From a virus (lineage: Duplodnaviria; Heunggongvirae; Uroviricota; Caudoviricetes), in IMG/VR virus record IMGVR_UViG_2531839450_000009: 30,601 nt of DNA; one strand, 5' to 3'. A program made the position numbers and the translations under genes. Each line of letters starts with the position of its first letter. Within the stretch, counting starts at the first letter, position 1. The notes under the pieces were generated by a model. That model did not search any database and was not told the origin of the DNA. It saw only the letters and a list, made by a program, of their open reading frames with translations. Positions 2,691 through 30,601 of this stretch are shown here, one piece after another.

Positions 2691-3551
2691 TTATTCGGGG
2701 AGTTTCAGCTTTGGATTGCGAGAATGGACGATTACAAAACTTTCCCGGCCTTTCTTCTCAATTGAACAGTCGAGATAGCCGATTGTTTTAAGCTGTTCTA
2801 TCGCTTTCTTAATGATACGGTTTTGCTCGCCAACAGCTGACTGTAAAGCCAGGCGCTCACGGATTCGCGCGAACGATAGCGGCAACGGGTTCTGCGGAAG
2901 GCTTTCGATGAAAGTGTAAATGGCTTGTGCAGCTTCTTTCTTCGGAAGGGCACGCAAGGCGTGGTGTTGCAACAGAACGCGATAATCAAGCTGGAACAGC
3001 TCCCAGAGCTTCGAATCGGCCTCCAGCTCTATCAGATCAAGGTCAGCATCAAAACGCCCGACCTTCAGCAGACCAGTCTGATAGCCGCCTTTAGCATCTT
3101 TTCCGCGCTTAAAAGCGATACCCTTGTTACGCAAGCGTCCAAGTGATTCATGAATGGTTAAACGCAGTTTCGCATCCAGACGTTTTGAGGGGAAACCACA
3201 GGCTTTAGCGAACTCCTGAAACGATAACTGGATGGTGTTTGAAGACAAGCCGTATTTGCTGAACGCGTAGATGACACCGATCCACGTTTTGAAATCAGTA
3301 TCCATATCGAGTCGAGGACCGGTGATTTTAATATCATCGTAACCCTCGGCTTTAGCTATCTCCAGCTGGGAAAACGCTTTGGTAGCATCAATCTCTTTAC
3401 TTTCTCCTTTGCTCTTTGATGGCTTCGGCACGAATACCCCCAAGCGCATCAACGCTACAGGCTGCACAGTGTTGTTTGAATTAACTGTTAGTTCTTTTGC
3501 CTTACTTTCAATGTCTGCGTAAAGAATATCGGAGATAAATGATTGATTCAT
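2691..3551 (-). CDS. repA: RepA plasmid replication initiator
   Basis: ORF track, 286 aa, starting MNQSFISDILYADIESKAKELTV. Flanked upstream by five origin iterons and downstream by the incA array, the canonical P1 R-replicon layout. Confidence 0.9.
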   Translation of the reverse strand: MNQSFISDILYADIESKAKELTVNSNNTVQPVALMRLGVFVPKPSKSKGESKEIDATKAFSQLEIAKAEGYDDIKITGPRLDMDTDFKTWIGVIYAFSKYGLSSNTIQLSFQEFAKACGFPSKRLDAKLRLTIHESLGRLRNKGIAFKRGKDAKGGYQTGLLKVGRFDADLDLIELEADSKLWELFQLDYRVLLQHHALRALPKKEAAQAIYTFIESLPQNPLPLSFARIRERLALQSAVGEQNRIIKKAIEQLKTIGYLDCSIEKKGRESFVIVHSRNPKLKLPE

Positions 3552-3559
3552 ATTACTTT

Positions 3560-3830
3560 TTCCGAATTATGTGGATAGTTTTTATAAGCGGTGATAACTA
3601 CCCAGGCTTTCCCGTCAGCACACATCCTATATCCCGCCAGCACACATTAGCAACCCGTCAGCACACATTTTTTTCCCTCCAGCGCACATCATTTTCCCTC
3701 CAGCACACATCGCGAAAGGCTTCTAAGCCAGACGGGGCGCGGCCTACGACGATCAGGGATCTATATGGATCTAATTGGGATCTGTATGGACCTGATTATT
3801 GGATCTATCCAGTGGATAATGTGGATAAGT
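3560..3830. other. oriR plasmid replication origin
   Basis: Contains DnaA-box matches tgtggatag at about 3570 and tandem gtggataa / tgtggataa at 3812-3828, the five incC iterons, and five GATC sites within about 55 bp (about 3751, 3758, 3768, 3779, 3802). Confidence 0.8.
3611..3712. repeat. incC: five direct iterons inside oriR (also the repA promoter region)
   Basis: cccgtcagcacacatcc, cccgccagcacacatta, cccgtcagcacacattt, ccctccagcgcacatca, ccctccagcacacatcg at roughly 22-bp spacing; same core as the incA iterons. Confidence 0.85.
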
Positions 3831-3869: not shown

Positions 3870-4262
3870 TTATTCTACGCTTTCGATAAGAAGACCATGT
3901 TCATAACATTTAAGCTCATCGCCTTCATACAGGAATTGGTATCCAACACCACCACCTTCCAGAACATTAGGGAATAAATCATCACTTACCGAAGAACAAA
4001 TCACACCAATGCAGCGATCAACGCCTTCTCGTTCTTCAGTGCTGAAAAAATCCTCTTCAATAAGCACTTGATTACATTGCTCATCAGCATAAGTTGGAAA
4101 TACATGCTCGATACAATCTGGATGTTTTAAACCAAGCTGATCGGCAAGTTCGAAAGCATGACGGTATTGTTCAGATCCTGGCTTGCCAACAGTGATTTGC
4201 TCAATTTTATAGATTGAAGTCGCTTTGTTGATAGTTTGCTTAACTGTTACTTTATCAGACAT
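3870..4262 (-). CDS. hypothetical protein (130 aa), last gene of the minus-strand operon
   Basis: ORF track. Starts MSDKVTVKQ. Compact spacing with the upstream lipoprotein gene. No recognisable domain. Confidence 0.5.
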   Translation of the reverse strand: MSDKVTVKQTINKATSIYKIEQITVGKPGSEQYRHAFELADQLGLKHPDCIEHVFPTYADEQCNQVLIEEDFFSTEEREGVDRCIGVICSSVSDDLFPNVLEGGGVGYQFLYEGDELKCYEHGLLIESVE

Positions 4263-7335: not shown

Positions 7336-9596
7336 AAGAGCTGTGCTATGGATCTGTTTGCAGTGGAATTGAAGCCGCGAGTATTGCCTGGGAACCGTTG
7401 GGTATGCGTCCGGCGTGGTTTGCTGAAATCGAGCCTTTTCCATCTGCCGTTCTTGCGCACCGCTGGCCCCATGTCGCCAACCTTGGCGACATGACAAAAC
7501 TTGCCCAAAAAGTCCTGGCTGGGGAAATCGAATCCCCTGATGTGCTCGTCGGGGGAACACCTTGTCAGGCATTCAGTATCGCAGGATTAGGTGGTGGGCT
7601 TGATGATGAGCGTGGCGCGCTAACTTTAAAGTATGTGGAGCTTGCAAATGCAATTGACGACAAACGGGCTGAGTCATTTCTCAAACCAGCCGTTATCGTC
7701 TGGGAAAATGTCCCAGGAGTCTTGTCATCGGCAGATAACGCCTTCGGATGTTTCCTTGCCGGATTGGCTGGAGAAGATGTGCCATTTGAACCAGGTGATC
7801 GACCTGAATCAGGAAAAAGCAACGCGTTCTGGCGGTGGGATGGCAAAACCGGTTGCCATGTTCCAAAGTGGCCGCAGTGTGGTTGTATTTATGGACCGCA
7901 GCGAAAGGTGGCCTGGAGAATCCTTGATGCCCAATACTTCGGAGTGGCACAACGACGCCGACGCGTGTTTGTTGTCGCAAGTGCTCGAACAGACCTCGAT
8001 CCCGCAACGGTACTTTTTGAGTTCGAAGGCGTGCGCCGGAATATTGCGCCGAGCCGAAAAAAGAAGGAAATCGCTTCCGCCATTACTGCAAATGGCGCTG
8101 CAATCAGTGGCGAAAGCCTAAATCCATGCCTACACGCTGGCATGTCCCCCGGTATGAAATCGACGAAAGCCGTAAACGGTTTCAGGATGGCGGCATTTGG
8201 GGAATATATTGACGATGAAACCGCATCGACAGTAAAGGCAAGAGACTTTAAAGATGCCACTGACCTTGCCGTTTTTAGCAGCACTGGAGCAGGTTTTTGG
8301 TCAGAAGGGCATGGTACATTGCGGGCGCGTGAGCAAGAAAGCCATGAGCATCTTGTTACATTGGCTTTTCCTGAGCGTATGAGTGGTACACAACATGCAG
8401 CAACTAAGAATACTTCACCATCTCTAATGGCTCAAAATCCAACTGCTGTTTGCTATGAAGTAAGAAACGAAGAAGTAGCTGTCCGCCGTCTTACCCCTGT
8501 CGAATGTGAGAGACTTCAAGGTTTTCCTGATGGGCATACGTTGATCCCTACGGAAAAGCGTAAAAAAGTTAATTCAGATGAACTGGCATATCTGCACAAT
8601 CACTATCCAGATTTAAGCGAAGAAGAGGCCGCGATGCTTGCAGCTGACGGACCGCGTTACAAAGCGATCGGCAATAGTATGGCAATACCAGTAATGCGCT
8701 GGATTGGCGAGCGGATTACCAGGGCTGCATGTCGGCAGAATGAAGGGCGTGAAACAAAAGAGCGAAAAGTTAAACCAGCGGCAGAATTCGAACGGTCCAT
8801 ATTCAAATGGGCTGGTGGAAAATTTGGTGTTCTGGAACAAATCTTTCGCTATTTGCCAGAAGGGAAGCGCCTGATCGAACCTTTTGTCGGTGGCGGAGCT
8901 GTCTTCACGAATGCCGGATACCAGGAAAATCTGCTAAATGATGTGAATGCTGACCTGATTAACTTTTACAAGACTCTGCAACGCGAGGCGCATTCACTTA
9001 TCACACTGGCGCATCGGTTTTTCCAGGACTACAACACACAGGAAGGATACCTGGCAGTACGGAATGCGTTTAACAAACAAGTCTATGATGATTTACATCG
9101 CGCAGCGGCGTTTTTGTTCCTGAACCGACATTGTTTTAACGGATTGACGCGTTACAACCAGGCCGGTGAGTTCAATGTCGGTTATGGGAAGTATAAAACT
9201 CCGTATTTCCCATTACAGGAGATGGAAGCCTTCCTCGGTGCGGAAGGGTGTTCTGAGTTTGTATGTGGTGATTTTGCAGCGGTGATTGAAGCTGCCGGAG
9301 AAGGAGATGTCATCTTTTGCGATCCGCCGTATGAACCGCTTCCAAATACAGAGGGATTCACGAACTATTCCGGTCATGACTTTAAGTTTGAAGAGCAAAA
9401 ACGCCTGGTGTCTCTGTTGACGGATGCTCATCGTCGAGGTGCAAAGGTTCTCATTACTAACAGTGGCGCGCCAAATATCAGAGAGCTTTATCATGACAGT
9501 GGCTTCAGAGTGGAACCTCTTTTTGCCAGACGTTCTGTGTCTTGTAAGGGGGACACTCGAGGTGTAGCTCATGACGTTTTAGGTATATTGCTCTAA
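7332..9596 (+). CDS. dmt: bifunctional DNA methyltransferase: N-terminal C5-cytosine MTase domain fused to C-terminal Dam-like N6-adenine MTase domain
   Basis: ORF track, 754 aa, GTG start overlapping the hrdC stop. N-terminal half has the catalytic [11 protein letters not shown] and ENV (WENVPGV) motifs of C5 MTases. C-terminal half has the DPPY motif (IFCDPPYEP) and Dam-like FKWAGGK/SAM-binding region. Confidence 0.88.
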
Positions 9597-9603
9597 TAAA
9601 TTT
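9587..9603 (+). promoter_or_regulatory. C1 repressor operator-like 17-mer overlapping the dmt stop codon
   Basis: attgctctaataaattt is a 17/17 match to the recalled C1 operator consensus. Embedded in the 16-bp palindrome ctaataaatttattag, followed by taatat (-10-like). Confidence 0.6.
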
Positions 9604-9619
9604 ATTAGTGTAATATCGC

Positions 9620-11751: not shown

Positions 11752-11827
11752 GGCCCTTTAGCTCAGTGGTTAGAGCTGGCGACTCATAATCGCACGGTCA
11801 CCGGTTCAAGTCCGGTAGGGGCCACCA
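11752..11827 (+). tRNA. trnI: tRNA-Ile (anticodon CAU, lysidine type, AUA-decoding); tRNA-Met cannot be excluded from sequence alone
   Basis: Clean cloverleaf: acceptor GGCCCTT/AGGGGCC, D-arm GCTC-AGTGGTTA-GAGC, anticodon loop CTCATAA, T-arm ACCGG-TTCAAGT-CCGGT, encoded CCA. Near-identical to E. coli ileX as I recall. Confidence 0.85.
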
Positions 11828-24605: not shown

Positions 24606-25112
24606 TTGAGTATTTTCAATAAACACGCACACCAGGAACGTCCGTACATCGTCATAGTAGATATTGATGGGACGATATCAGAGGCAACGGAAGACAGGCT
24701 GCATTTACTTCCACCACCTGGCAAAGGTGCATTAACAGAGCACTGGAACGAGTTTAACCTTGCCTGTGACACTGATGCTCCCATCACTCCAGTTATTGAT
24801 ATGGTGCGCCAGTTGTCCGGCATTTACACCCTCTGGTTTGTAACCGGGCGCTGTGAGATAGCCAGGGATAAAACACGAGCCTGGTTGCGTAAGCACGTAA
24901 CAAATGGGACTGAGCCTTTGCTATCTATGCGTCCTGCCACCGATGACAGAAATGACGGTCCAGCAAAGATTGATCTCCTGAAGAAAATTGGTCTAAGTAA
25001 AATTGCGTTCGCGCTGGAAGATAAGATTGACGTGGCGCGTGTTTTCAGGAGTCACGGCGTACTTACGTTAATGGTCAGGGAGTATGAAAACGCGCTTCTC
25101 CATCAACAATAA
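24606..25112 (+). CDS. HAD-superfamily phosphatase (phage Pnkp 3'-phosphatase-domain-like)
   Basis: ORF track; TTG start with GAGGAG Shine-Dalgarno. HAD motif I IVIVDIDGTI (DxDGT), later TGR and a D-rich motif. Confidence 0.6.
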   Translation: MSIFNKHAHQERPYIVIVDIDGTISEATEDRLHLLPPPGKGALTEHWNEFNLACDTDAPITPVIDMVRQLSGIYTLWFVTGRCEIARDKTRAWLRKHVTNGTEPLLSMRPATDDRNDGPAKIDLLKKIGLSKIAFALEDKIDVARVFRSHGVLTLMVREYENALLHQQ

Positions 25113-28879: not shown

Positions 28880-29554
28880 ATGGCGCAAAAAGAAATGACT
28901 ACTCTAACGACAGCATACTTACAGCAATTGGTATTTTTTGCAGGCGAGGCTACTTGTCATCCTGACGCAAACTATTTATTGGAATTTGAGAGGTTAGCGT
29001 CACCCGGTATCGTTCTGGAACTGGCCCAACAGGTGCTGGCCTTGAGACAAAAAGAGCAACATGAAAGTAATACGTGTAGATTGAATTTTGAGCAGTGGCT
29101 GGAACAGCAACGCGGAAAAATCGATGTGGACTGTGGTTGTGTGTCCACTGAAACATTCATGCACTGGCTGCGGGTAGCTTACGAGGCTGGCAACTATCCG
29201 GATATTCCGGATAGTTCGGTGCCAGCGCCAGGAAAGGGCGTCACCGGTGAACGTATCCGCATTAAGCCGCATGTTTATCGCGAACTGGTTAACCGTCTCC
29301 ACGATACAGCGATCAAGTGTGCTGGCACCCAGCAATTACGAGAAAGAATTAGCCGTGTTTTGGGCGACGTTATTACGCCATATCATCATAAACAAGCCGA
29401 GAAAAGTGGCTTGGAAAGGTGTCACCTTGAGGCGGCATTAAACATTAAGCCGGGGCATACGCTTGGCATTATTGATGCACTATTGGTTCATAAGATGGCC
29501 AGGGCTTTATTGCCGCTGGTGGATGCTGGCGATACAAGCGAGGGTGAAGTATGA
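28880..29554 (+). CDS. hypothetical protein (224 aa)
   Basis: ORF track; AGGAATG context; stop overlaps the next start. Confidence 0.5.
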   Translation: MAQKEMTTLTTAYLQQLVFFAGEATCHPDANYLLEFERLASPGIVLELAQQVLALRQKEQHESNTCRLNFEQWLEQQRGKIDVDCGCVSTETFMHWLRVAYEAGNYPDIPDSSVPAPGKGVTGERIRIKPHVYRELVNRLHDTAIKCAGTQQLRERISRVLGDVITPYHHKQAEKSGLERCHLEAALNIKPGHTLGIIDALLVHKMARALLPLVDAGDTSEGEV

Positions 29555-29913
29555 GAGTTGCAGATCACATCAAACACCTTGAAAGAATTATCGAAAACGG
29601 TGAACTCTTAAGAGATCAGATGAGACGCACGGCAGAAGTCAGAGAGGCGATAATCCGCAGTCAGGCTGGTAAATTAAAGCAATTGTCAGAGATTAACGCG
29701 CTATACAAGAACAGACGTAACCGGGCGGCGCTTCGGCTTCAGAAAGCACGTAATGAAATTAAATTGGTGGAGGCAAAACTGAAAAAACAGATTCAGCGTT
29801 ACGATCAGCAAGATGCTTTTTATGCCGCCATCAAGGCGGCTGCTAATGAAATAGGCATCTGGAAGTTGCTGGTGGAGAAAGCAAAGACGAAGTTAAATGC
29901 CAACGAAAGCTGA
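29551..29913 (+). CDS. hypothetical basic coiled-coil protein (120 aa)
   Basis: ORF track; Lys/Arg-rich heptad-like sequence; last gene of the plus-strand accessory operon. Confidence 0.45.
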   Translation: MRVADHIKHLERIIENGELLRDQMRRTAEVREAIIRSQAGKLKQLSEINALYKNRRNRAALRLQKARNEIKLVEAKLKKQIQRYDQQDAFYAAIKAAANEIGIWKLLVEKAKTKLNANES

Positions 29914-29987
29914 ACTACAGGTACCCACCAGCACATACAGAAAATGATTGTTTCCACATCAAGGAGATTTTAATGTTTCACTGAACA

Positions 29988-30125
29988 TTAAGTAAGCCAG
30001 TGCATAATTCCATTTTTTACTGACCTTAAAAGCAAAATCAAAACGATGATGAGGATGATCGCCAGAATCTGGCTAATAACAGGCGCATCTAAAAATGCAC
30101 TCAGGAACTGAAAAAAAGCAGTCAT
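29988..30125 (-). CDS. small hydrophobic peptide (45 aa), candidate membrane toxin-like protein
   Basis: Minus-strand ATG at 30125 with AGGAA about 10 nt upstream. Hand translation MTAFFQFLSAFLDAPVISQILAIILIIVLILLLRSVKNGIMHWLT, one predicted TM helix. Below the ORF-track size cutoff. Confidence 0.35.
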   Translation of the reverse strand: MTAFFQFLSAFLDAPVISQILAIILIIVLILLLRSVKNGIMHWLT

Positions 30126-30601
30126 TAAGGTGGTTCCTTGTCAAATGTAAAGGAGCACTTGCTCACGTTGACGTAGAAACCCAACCCCTATATAGTTGGA
30201 TTCGGTGAAAGAAAGTCGTTAACGTGAGCTTACGGCACATGTTTTCGGAACAACATCAGGGAACGGCTAATTCCTTGATGCGGATGGGGTCTGTAATGCA
30301 GACCCTATCTATTAACGTCATGATTGCATCTCAAATTTTCTCCTTATCTTCAATTAATCTACATTCATTTCATCTGTTAGCCACCACAATATGTAGAAAA
30401 TGGCCCTCTTGCAAGTGCATAACTTTGTGGATAACTCAGGAAGGAAAAAGTGGCTTTCGCGCACCTTCGGTCAGACAAGGTGTCCGGGAAAGTCAACGCA
30501 AAGAAAAAAATTGTTAAAAATAACGTTTGTTGGAATTGTATATTTTTATCCCCTTCAATGGTTAGCATTCTATTAACATCTTTTTAGAGACAGAAAAACA
30601 T

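Follow-up and report, generated by a model that had tools for sequence, protein, structure and literature searches.

Type I toxin–antitoxin (TA) loci encode small (<60 amino acids, aa), hydrophobic, membrane-targeted proteins, and two such systems offer the nearest comparison for the locus described here. The hok/sok/mok unit of plasmid R1 is a plasmid-borne, maintenance-type element; its mRNA of about 400–450 nucleotides (nt) folds back 5′ to 3′ and carries a leader frame, mok, with its own Shine–Dalgarno (SD) sequence, which is targeted by an antisense RNA with a single-stranded 5′ tail, and the toxins of the two systems are small (Hok, 52 aa; LdrD, 35 aa; PMC8309996). The ldr/rdl units are about 0.5 kb long and have a small single-transmembrane (TM) peptide (LdrA, 35 aa) in the 3′ part of a long-leader mRNA, with a divergent antisense gene inside the leader. 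Here we describe a 512-bp cassette, tentatively read as a unit of this kind, near the end of a 30,601-nt stretch of viral DNA (IMG/VR record IMGVR_UViG_2531839450_000009), which we call the window. By sequence comparison, the window is a P1/P7-type phage-plasmid: its last 1.1 kb are 97.6–97.7% identical to phage P7 and P1-type phages, and the closest matches to that part are two E. coli P1-like plasmids (99.8% identity).

P1 is among the best-studied phages, and P1-like phage-plasmids commonly carry resistance genes in E. coli and Salmonella. The same DNA (97.6% identity) is present in the P1 reference (NC_005856, M95666), at 85.9–86.5 kb of NC_005856 between pmgV and hot, where it is annotated with the plus-strand genes upfM, upfN and upfO, of unknown function, and with the promoters P2upfM, P1upfM and PupfN. 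A 56-bp stretch is described in P1 as ‘94% identical to E. coli DNA containing two predicted DnaA boxes’, and M95666 lists an ‘nrdA-like promoter’ with a ‘dnaA box’ on the complementary strand. The P7 reference has other plus-strand ‘Upf’ open reading frames (ORFs) here, and in neither reference is the minus-strand ORF of 45 codons, the subject of this report, annotated. The initial annotation of this DNA, made from the letters alone, had allowed that the region might be a known site of the reference phage; it does carry the P1 annotations upfM–upfO and the nrdA-like promoter, with no TA unit among them. The upfM–upfO genes are non-essential for P1 plaque formation (PMC10695390), and P1-like phage-plasmids have eight hypervariable regions, of which this is one (PMC9603915). 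The DnaA box and the nrdA-like promoter are already known; what is new is to read the cassette as a sense/antisense pair around an unannotated peptide gene, a unit not described in the literature that we searched (on upfM, upfN and upfO, on the protein accession, on P1 transcriptomes and on type I TA systems in phage-plasmids).

Anatomy of the candidate cassette

We read the cassette as encoding a small single-TM peptide under antisense control, in a type I TA-like arrangement organised like hok/sok and ldr/rdl. This reading is the one we favour, and we hold it tentatively, at a little short of an even chance, from the arrangement of features in the DNA (Table 1), their conservation and the predicted folds. 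The peptide frame that the initial annotation had pointed out is present, with an AAGGA SD, and its Kyte–Doolittle hydropathy reaches a maximum of 3.08 over a 19-residue span (residues 15–33), consistent with one TM segment. It converges, as had been noted, on the end of a plus-strand operon, here the ORF at 29551–29913 (+), a homologue of P1 pmgV. The 45-aa product is within the size and has the hydrophobic, membrane-targeted character of type I toxins in both of the alleles described below, and is called by PGAP, in some plasmids only, as hypothetical protein WP_000123562.1.

The E. coli nrdAB promoter is regulated by DnaA, Fis and IciA. DnaA acts through the boxes of that promoter, as an activator or a repressor of nrdAB according to its level and nucleotide state (PMC8203912). 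In the window, 65 nt (30396–30460) are 100% identical to the chromosome upstream of nrdA, overlapping ypaB, in thousands of E. coli genomes. Both DnaA boxes, the −35 hexamer and the spacer are included in the phage copy; the homology becomes weak at the −10, TATTGT in the phage standing in the register of the nrdA −10 hexamer. Because the boxes, −35, spacer and −10 register of nrdA are all carried over, the promoter points to the minus strand, and transcription would start near 30379 and run leftward. Consensus boxes thus adjoin a sigma-70 −35 hexamer within nrdA homology, as in an nrdA-type promoter, and by analogy DnaA may control the cassette. Downstream of the spacer the two sequences are unrelated, and the phage copy would drive a leader and peptide mRNA, whereas the E. 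coli promoter drives a reductase. The perfect DnaA box, which had been listed as an oddity in its own right, is where it was reported and belongs to this host-derived promoter already annotated in P1.

Two further observations concern these motifs. The sequence AACCCCTATATAGTTGG (30184–30199, plus strand), which holds the −10 of the antisense promoter described below, is similar to CCCCCTATATATAGTGTT, taken as an NrdR box, which follows directly on the nrdA −10 in E. coli; this similarity may be fortuitous or may mark a second regulatory motif related to nrdA. Elsewhere in the window, three DnaA boxes, one of them perfect, lie at 3570–3828 on the minus strand beside a 286-aa ORF (2691–3551, minus strand), and this cluster looks like the plasmid origin oriR with repA.

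The minus-strand mRNA is predicted to be about 450 nt long, from about 30379 to about 29927. Its leader contains a mini-ORF whose length varies among variants (1, 3 or 5 codons) and a 21-codon ORF that keeps its length and stays open in every lineage; the divergent allele has changes at 6 of the 21 residues, so that the ORF is not conserved as a protein. The reported 13-bp inverted repeat is present with its 43-bp spacer, its arms (GCTCACGTTGACG, 30161–30173, and CGTTAACGTGAGC, 30217–30229) agreeing in 12 of 13 nucleotides. The region has no second pair of this kind, and about 4% of random 688-nt sequences from a Markov-1 model have one. The repeat contains the antisense promoter at the DNA level and appears as a hairpin in minimum free energy (MFE) folds of most lineages and transcript lengths tried, being missing from the full-length fold of the divergent allele. 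Near the 3′ end, CUCCUU is complementary to the leader SD AAGGAG and also to 30278–30270.

The two ends of the predicted mRNA could pair. In the window allele this 5′–3′ pairing has a probability of about 0.7 in the 455-nt full-length fold. In the divergent allele the helix has 17 uninterrupted base pairs, formed by GCACACACAGGAAAUGG with CCAUUUUUUGUGUGUGC, and an energy of −27.3 kcal/mol, which 1 of 300 shuffles attained. It runs from the predicted start site to the point where homology gives out; the alleles are no longer homologous just past the 3′ end element. One A–U to G–C double change in this helix separates the alleles, on transcript ends that are themselves predicted.

Within the leader, a near-consensus promoter on the opposite strand, PupfN of P1, is predicted to start transcription about 78 nt upstream of the peptide ATG. 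A sigma-70 scan of 900 bp gave a single promoter-like site, no more than in shuffled sequences, and the weight of the antisense promoter comes from conservation and not from site count. No variant has a change in its hexamers, its spacer holds the two positions of the region that vary, and the exact pattern occurs in 54 of 54 peptide-carrying IMG/VR contigs and in no other contigs.

The putative antisense RNA from this promoter folds into three stem-loops (SL1–SL3) with an MFE of −43.8 kcal/mol (z −5.15) in the window allele, −43.2 kcal/mol (z −5.08) in a P7-type variant and −37.2 kcal/mol (z −4.32) in the divergent allele; the complement gives −30.2 kcal/mol (z −3.64) for the window and −24.5 kcal/mol (z −2.87) for the divergent allele. 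In both variants for which the complement was folded, the plus strand is better by about 13 kcal/mol, because 7–8 pairs that are G·U on this strand would be A·C on the other; about 6 of the 13 kcal/mol are base composition. All three between-allele changes in SL2 fall in the loop, and SL3 has one U–A to C–G double change together with two one-sided changes that preserve pairing; four changes between the alleles break terminal or weak pairs. SL3 is the GC hairpin of the initial annotation, whose stem extends to 13 pairs on the plus strand. That hairpin and the inverted repeat had been taken as free-standing structured non-coding DNA, and are better read as parts of two overlapping RNAs. A table of RNA sequencing from P1vir lytic infection, with gene-level log fold changes given without strand, lists 4.9 for upfN versus 1.5 for upfO at 10 min, about a 10-fold difference. 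This pattern is compatible with transcripts that end before the promoter and DnaA-box interval, and decides nothing.

From the observed anatomy, conservation and thermodynamics we infer how the cassette might be transcribed, translated, repressed and controlled by DnaA, and how its peptide might be toxic. The nrdA-derived promoter, with its two DnaA boxes and −35, would fire leftward near 30379 from the cassette's own −10, weakly and probably modulated by DnaA. The mRNA of about 450 nt would pair its 5′ end with its 3′ end and present about 250 nt of folded leader (strong SD, mini-ORF and 21-codon ORF) ahead of the peptide ORF. From inside this leader the opposing promoter would fire rightward, giving an RNA of about 110 nt with three stem-loops; its complementarity to the leader would be perfect and would begin 7 nt past the start codon of the 21-codon ORF. 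By analogy with Sok and mok–hok, the duplex may block leader translation, trigger RNase III cleavage, or both, so keeping the peptide silent while the phage-plasmid is present. Once an unstable antisense RNA was lost, the peptide would enter the inner membrane and arrest growth.

Set beside the described systems, the cassette shares with ldr/rdl a size of about 0.5 kb, a 3′ peptide behind a long leader and the place of a divergent antisense gene in that leader, rdlA lying 48 nt upstream of ldrA in MG1655 and its predicted counterpart about 78 nt upstream here. It differs in the predicted length of the antisense RNA (about 110 nt, against about 66 nt for Rdl), and in being a single-copy locus on a phage-plasmid with a host-derived DnaA-box promoter. 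With hok/sok/mok it shares a plasmid-borne, maintenance-type setting and a leader frame with its own SD; its predicted mRNA would be of similar length and may fold back 5′ to 3′, and its putative antisense RNA would likewise have a single-stranded 5′ tail and face the leader frame.

Table 1. Positions of the features in and around the cassette, numbered from the first letter of the window
Feature	Position	Strand	Remarks
Whole cassette, 512 bp	29926–30437	−	Shared by the window/P1/P7 allele and the divergent IncY-type allele
45-codon ORF, MTAFFQFLSAFLDAPVISQILAIILIIVLILLLRSVKNGIMHWLT	29988–30125	−	Single TM, hydrophobic, basic C-terminal part
Peptide SD, AAGGA	30139–30135	−	9 nt before the ATG
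nrdA-upstream-derived segment	30396–30465	−	Two DnaA boxes and −35 hexamer
Perfect DnaA box, TTATCCACA (plus strand TGTGGATAA)	30434–30426	−	One of two perfect boxes in the 30.6-kb window
Second DnaA box, TTATGCACT	30422–30414	−	Overlaps the −35 TTGCAA
Predicted minus-strand promoter	30386–30414	−	−35 TTGCAA (30414–30409), 17-bp spacer, −10 TATTGT (30391–30386); from sequence and nrdA alignment
mRNA 5′ end element	30364–30381	−	Complementary to the 3′ element 29927–29947
Leader translation signals (SD and mini-ORF)	30318–30345	−	From sequence
Leader SD, AAGGAG	30345–30340	−	Invariant in all variants
Mini-ORF, AUG CAA UCA UGA	30329–30318	−	10 nt after the SD; stop overlaps the next AUG
21-codon leader ORF, MTLIDRVCITDPIRIKELAVP	30256–30321	−	Covered by the predicted antisense RNA
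13-nt inverted repeat pair with inner 10-bp hairpin	30161–30229	−	mRNA stem-loop 35 nt upstream of the peptide start
3′ untranslated part	29927–29966	−	CUCCUU (29966–29961) and 3′ end element UCAUUUUCUGUAUGUGCUGGUG (29947–29927)
Antisense promoter, TTGACG-17 bp-TATAGT	30168–30196	+	10/12 consensus; P1 PupfN
Predicted antisense RNA, about 110 nt	30203–30312	+	13-nt single-stranded 5′ tail, SL1–SL3, then UAUCUAUU; both ends putative
SL1	30216–30248	+	Antisense RNA fold
SL2	30254–30280	+	Antisense RNA fold
SL3 (GC hairpin)	30282–30310	+	13 pairs including G·U, 30282–30294 with 30298–30310; core 30287–30305
AT-rich tail, outside the cassette	30466–30601		P7/window lineage only; P1 match ends at about 30464, P7 match continues

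Alleles, distribution and relatives

A divergent allele of the peptide, MIVFFQFLSAFLNAPVLSQVLAIVFIVVLIWFFKSVINRGVRWLI, was found by tblastn in IncY/P1-like plasmids; it is full-length at 45 aa, 60% identical, and preceded by the SD GAGGA. The ORF DNA of the two alleles is 77% identical, so that 23% divergence has accumulated with zero indels, and the non-coding flanks carry indels. Start, stop, length and SD are retained, as is the TM character (grand average of hydropathy 1.6 and 1.7, with a Kyte–Doolittle peak of 3.08). The 45-aa ORF is the only ORF of the region that we count as surviving in the divergent allele. The plus-strand frames upfM and upfN (30095–30208 and 30224–30517; upf91.3 and upf91.4 in P7) are destroyed there, broken up by frameshifts and stop codons, and the P1 copy of upfN is shorter than that of the window through truncation; these comparisons indicate that upfM and upfN are probably not genes. 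As a set, the upfM, upfN and upfO of the P1 reference are not conserved.

Identity between the alleles is uneven along the cassette. The DnaA boxes and the −35 are identical, and the −10 and start region has diverged, with a 17-nt insertion, the divergent allele keeping its hexamers as TTGCAA and TACTGT. From 30342 to 30162 the alleles are about 92% identical, with only two substitutions in 30243–30162. At 30161/30162 there is an abrupt step in identity, 98% on one side and about 60% on the other; the 36 nt that precede the ORF, which include an indel, are at about 60%, and the 3′ part, with indels, is at about 65%. The cassette is the only homology island between two alleles with different flanks: its left neighbour is pmgV in the window and a type I restriction–modification system in an IncY-type plasmid (L006), and its right neighbour is hot in P1 and L006, the window/P7 type being without hot.

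The host-derived stretch also differs by lineage: identity to E. coli is 100% over 65 nt in the window/P7 type and 94% over 56 nt in P1 (about 3897–3952 of the P1 locus L001), and the stretch is about 40 nt long in the divergent IncY-type allele. This variation in length and identity suggests that the nrdA stretch has been exchanged with the host chromosome more than once, by recombination or gene conversion.

The cassette was found in 229 PLSDB plasmids, all from Escherichia, Salmonella or Shigella, and a P1 backbone gene in 491, which marks the cassette as accessory cargo. In 228 of the 229, at least 80% of the ORF length is intact. The pmgV 3′ end and the cassette occur together in 47 of 48 IMG/VR contigs, and seem to be gained and lost together; an ‘empty site’ that would define the cassette ends was sought in IMG/VR and not found. 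Inactivated copies of the peptide are rare (1 of 229 plasmids): some are frameshifted or cut after residues 31–39 (proteins P0001–P0004), one locus (L008) has a single extra A in the ORF, and in one metagenome contig (L151) homology ends inside it.

A third allele was sought widely. Searches by tblastn and blastn against plasmids and phages gave only the same two alleles; a word-indexed search of 5.8 billion proteins gave no third allele, and HMMER on 1.84 billion representative proteins gave only the two alleles and their frameshifted or truncated copies. Back-translated peptide motifs had no match in GTDB genomes and 54 loci in IMG/VR, all of the same two alleles. DNA patterns of the antisense promoter and the inverted-repeat arms, run against IMG/VR, GTDB genomes and metagenomes, matched outside P1-like DNA by chance only. 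Elsewhere in the window there is no paralogue of the cassette or the peptide.

The initial annotation placed the peptide outside the toxin families known to it, and profile searches agree: with both alleles, Pfam, NCBIfam, PHROGs and PADLOC gave only sub-threshold chance matches, and thus no family, whether TisB, ShoB, Ibs, ZorO, DinQ, Fst, SymE or another catalogued type I toxin. The 21-aa leader peptide matched no NCBIfam family, and the cassette no Rfam family at E up to 10; a BsrG match in Rfam (15 bits, E 0.48) was put down to chance. At the same limit there was no match to Hok/Gef in Pfam or NCBIfam, or to Sok/hok in Rfam. A resemblance to Ldr (D-x-A-P-I/V) was rejected by BLASTP and blastn against the real ldrA locus: the peptide gave no BLASTP alignment with LdrA at E up to 100, the cassette shared only chance words with the LDR-A unit, and neither Ldr_toxin in Pfam nor rdlD in Rfam gave a match. 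On these comparisons, membership in the hok/sok and ldr/rdl families is excluded. The only Rfam match above the gathering score in the window is a tRNA gene at 11752–11824 on the plus strand (RF00005, 64.7 bits).

No C1 operator lies in the cassette, which could therefore be expressed in lysogens; its place is beside phd-doc, in the accessory region expressed in lysogeny. Elsewhere in the window there are seven matches to the P1 C1 operator ATTGCTCTAATAAATTT (6065, 9587, 9598, 19347, 22971, 23020 and 25112; 0.13 expected by chance), including a perfect site that overlaps a second at 9587–9614, and the site at 25112 precedes the plus-strand operon ending at 29913. No LexA box was seen by eye in the cassette.

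To the right, no conserved ORF was found in the AT-rich tail of the window (30466–30601). In the closest relative (L004, 5105–5490), which continues past position 30601, the corresponding AT-rich stretch is about 390 bp long and without annotated genes. Beyond it, two minus-strand genes for proteins of 118 and 194 aa point toward the cassette, the 194-aa gene standing where P1 has lxr and preceded by a LexA box; in this lineage, transcription induced by the SOS response might conceivably read through into the cassette.

Points against the favoured reading and its rivals

Several observations count against an antisense-controlled, toxin-like peptide, and three other readings are considered beside it. 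At the level of the ORF, the 31 substitutions between alleles are spread 11/8/12 over the codon positions, which is near neutral, and the 18 amino-acid changes are what random placement of the same substitutions would produce. With P = 0.08, such a placement both leaves the frame open and scores at least as well by BLOSUM; the frame alone stays open in about 30% of trials with 31 random substitutions; and the Nei–Gojobori dN/dS is 0.45. Hydrophobic ORFs arise readily on T-rich strands. Protein-level selection on the ORF is not statistically detectable, and the evidence for it is weak; what speaks for the ORF is mainly that it has no indels and keeps its translation signals and its hydrophobicity. 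The type I TA organisation first proposed for this DNA is supported in part, by the layout (promoter, leader, opposing promoter and fold) and not by selection on the ORF.

The same figures would suit a locus whose functional product is the structured plus-strand RNA, either a trans-acting or cis-regulatory small RNA or a leader for hot or another gene, with the 45-codon ORF fortuitous in T-rich DNA. The plus-strand fold and its promoter are the best-supported single element of the cassette, and in P1 and the IncY-type allele hot lies downstream on that strand. We nevertheless think this unlikely: the nrdA-like promoter, which drives the opposite strand, is conserved in both alleles, and the ORF keeps start, stop, SD and length free of indels while both non-coding flanks have them and other ORFs break. 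The window/P7 lineage, moreover, keeps the cassette with neither hot nor a conserved plus-strand gene downstream.

Other points concern the RNAs themselves. The leader ORF ends 130 nt before the peptide ORF, whereas mok overlaps hok. The predicted antisense RNA stops short of the leader SD, leaving it uncovered, in which it differs from the mok-type arrangement, and ends 7 nt short of the AUG of the 21-codon ORF. The U-tract after SL3 (UAUCUAUU) is poor, which makes the 3′ end of the antisense RNA uncertain, and a canonical intrinsic terminator was sought for both RNAs and not found. In the window allele the 5′–3′ helix is weak and interrupted (−16.2 kcal/mol, against a shuffle mean of −14.1), and no helix that sequesters the peptide SD in both alleles was found in the folds, the pairing partners differing. 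The covariation falls short of significance (with six distinct sequences, 90 of 500 shuffles score as high), there being only two alleles and one compensatory pair per helix. Finally, backbone genes are near-identical between plasmids with either allele (the same phd and humD protein accessions), and the ‘95% core’ of the cassette may be backbone-level identity beside a recombined, older segment and not special constraint.

The region might also have no dedicated function, being a mosaic junction of the pmgT–humD region with a scrap of nrdA promoter and chance hairpins and ORF, or might act only as a DNA-level site (DnaA titration, or an inverted repeat that binds protein). Its position in a hypervariable region (PMC9603915), its dispensability (PMC10695390), the lineage-dependent length of the nrdA stretch, indicating host recombination, and the breakpoint-like drop in identity at 30161/30162 would all fit. 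This seems very unlikely to us in view of the one-strand fold with z of −4.3 to −5.2 in three variants covering both alleles, the loop-only substitutions in SL2 and the two compensatory pairs, promoter hexamers that are invariant around a variable spacer, and the persistence of the same 512 bp as a unit between different neighbours; the cassette also has neither a C1 operator nor further DnaA boxes.

About half of P1-like plasmids are without the cassette, which would also suit a further reading. The peptide may be an antisense-regulated small membrane protein that is not a toxin, modulating a host membrane protein or serving phage-plasmid physiology (exclusion, or a response to replication stress through the DnaA promoter), with no post-segregational killing. 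The anatomy would be the same; the peptide, amphipathic in its N-terminal part, is of a size known among type I toxins (45 aa, more than LdrD and less than Hok), and size does not discriminate; it matches no toxin family; and P1 already has phd-doc 1.5 kb away. Against this, which we judge unlikely, a strong and constitutive-looking antisense promoter opposed to a weak sense one is what toxin control typically shows, and so are the long folded leader and the 5′–3′ fold-back; nothing else separates a toxin from a non-toxin in silico.

Meaning for P1-like phage-plasmids

Taken furthest, the antisense-controlled toxin that we tentatively favour would be a new type I TA family in P1 and its relatives, in which a promoter captured from nrdA and repeatedly refreshed ties the peptide to DnaA-ATP and replication status, and a cis-antisense RNA silences it in lysogens; in this full form the proposal is possible but doubtful. 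Should the cassette prove to be a working antisense-controlled toxin, P1-like phage-plasmids would carry a second addiction or stress module beside phd-doc, and the reference annotation would be corrected, upfM and upfN probably not being genes. It would also represent a new toxin family that profile searches cannot find, and would show clearly how a mobile element can take over a cell-cycle promoter of its host to set the timing of a toxin. Even with a peptide that is not toxic, these phage-plasmids would have an unannotated regulatory unit, marked by the DnaA-box promoter and the structured RNA.

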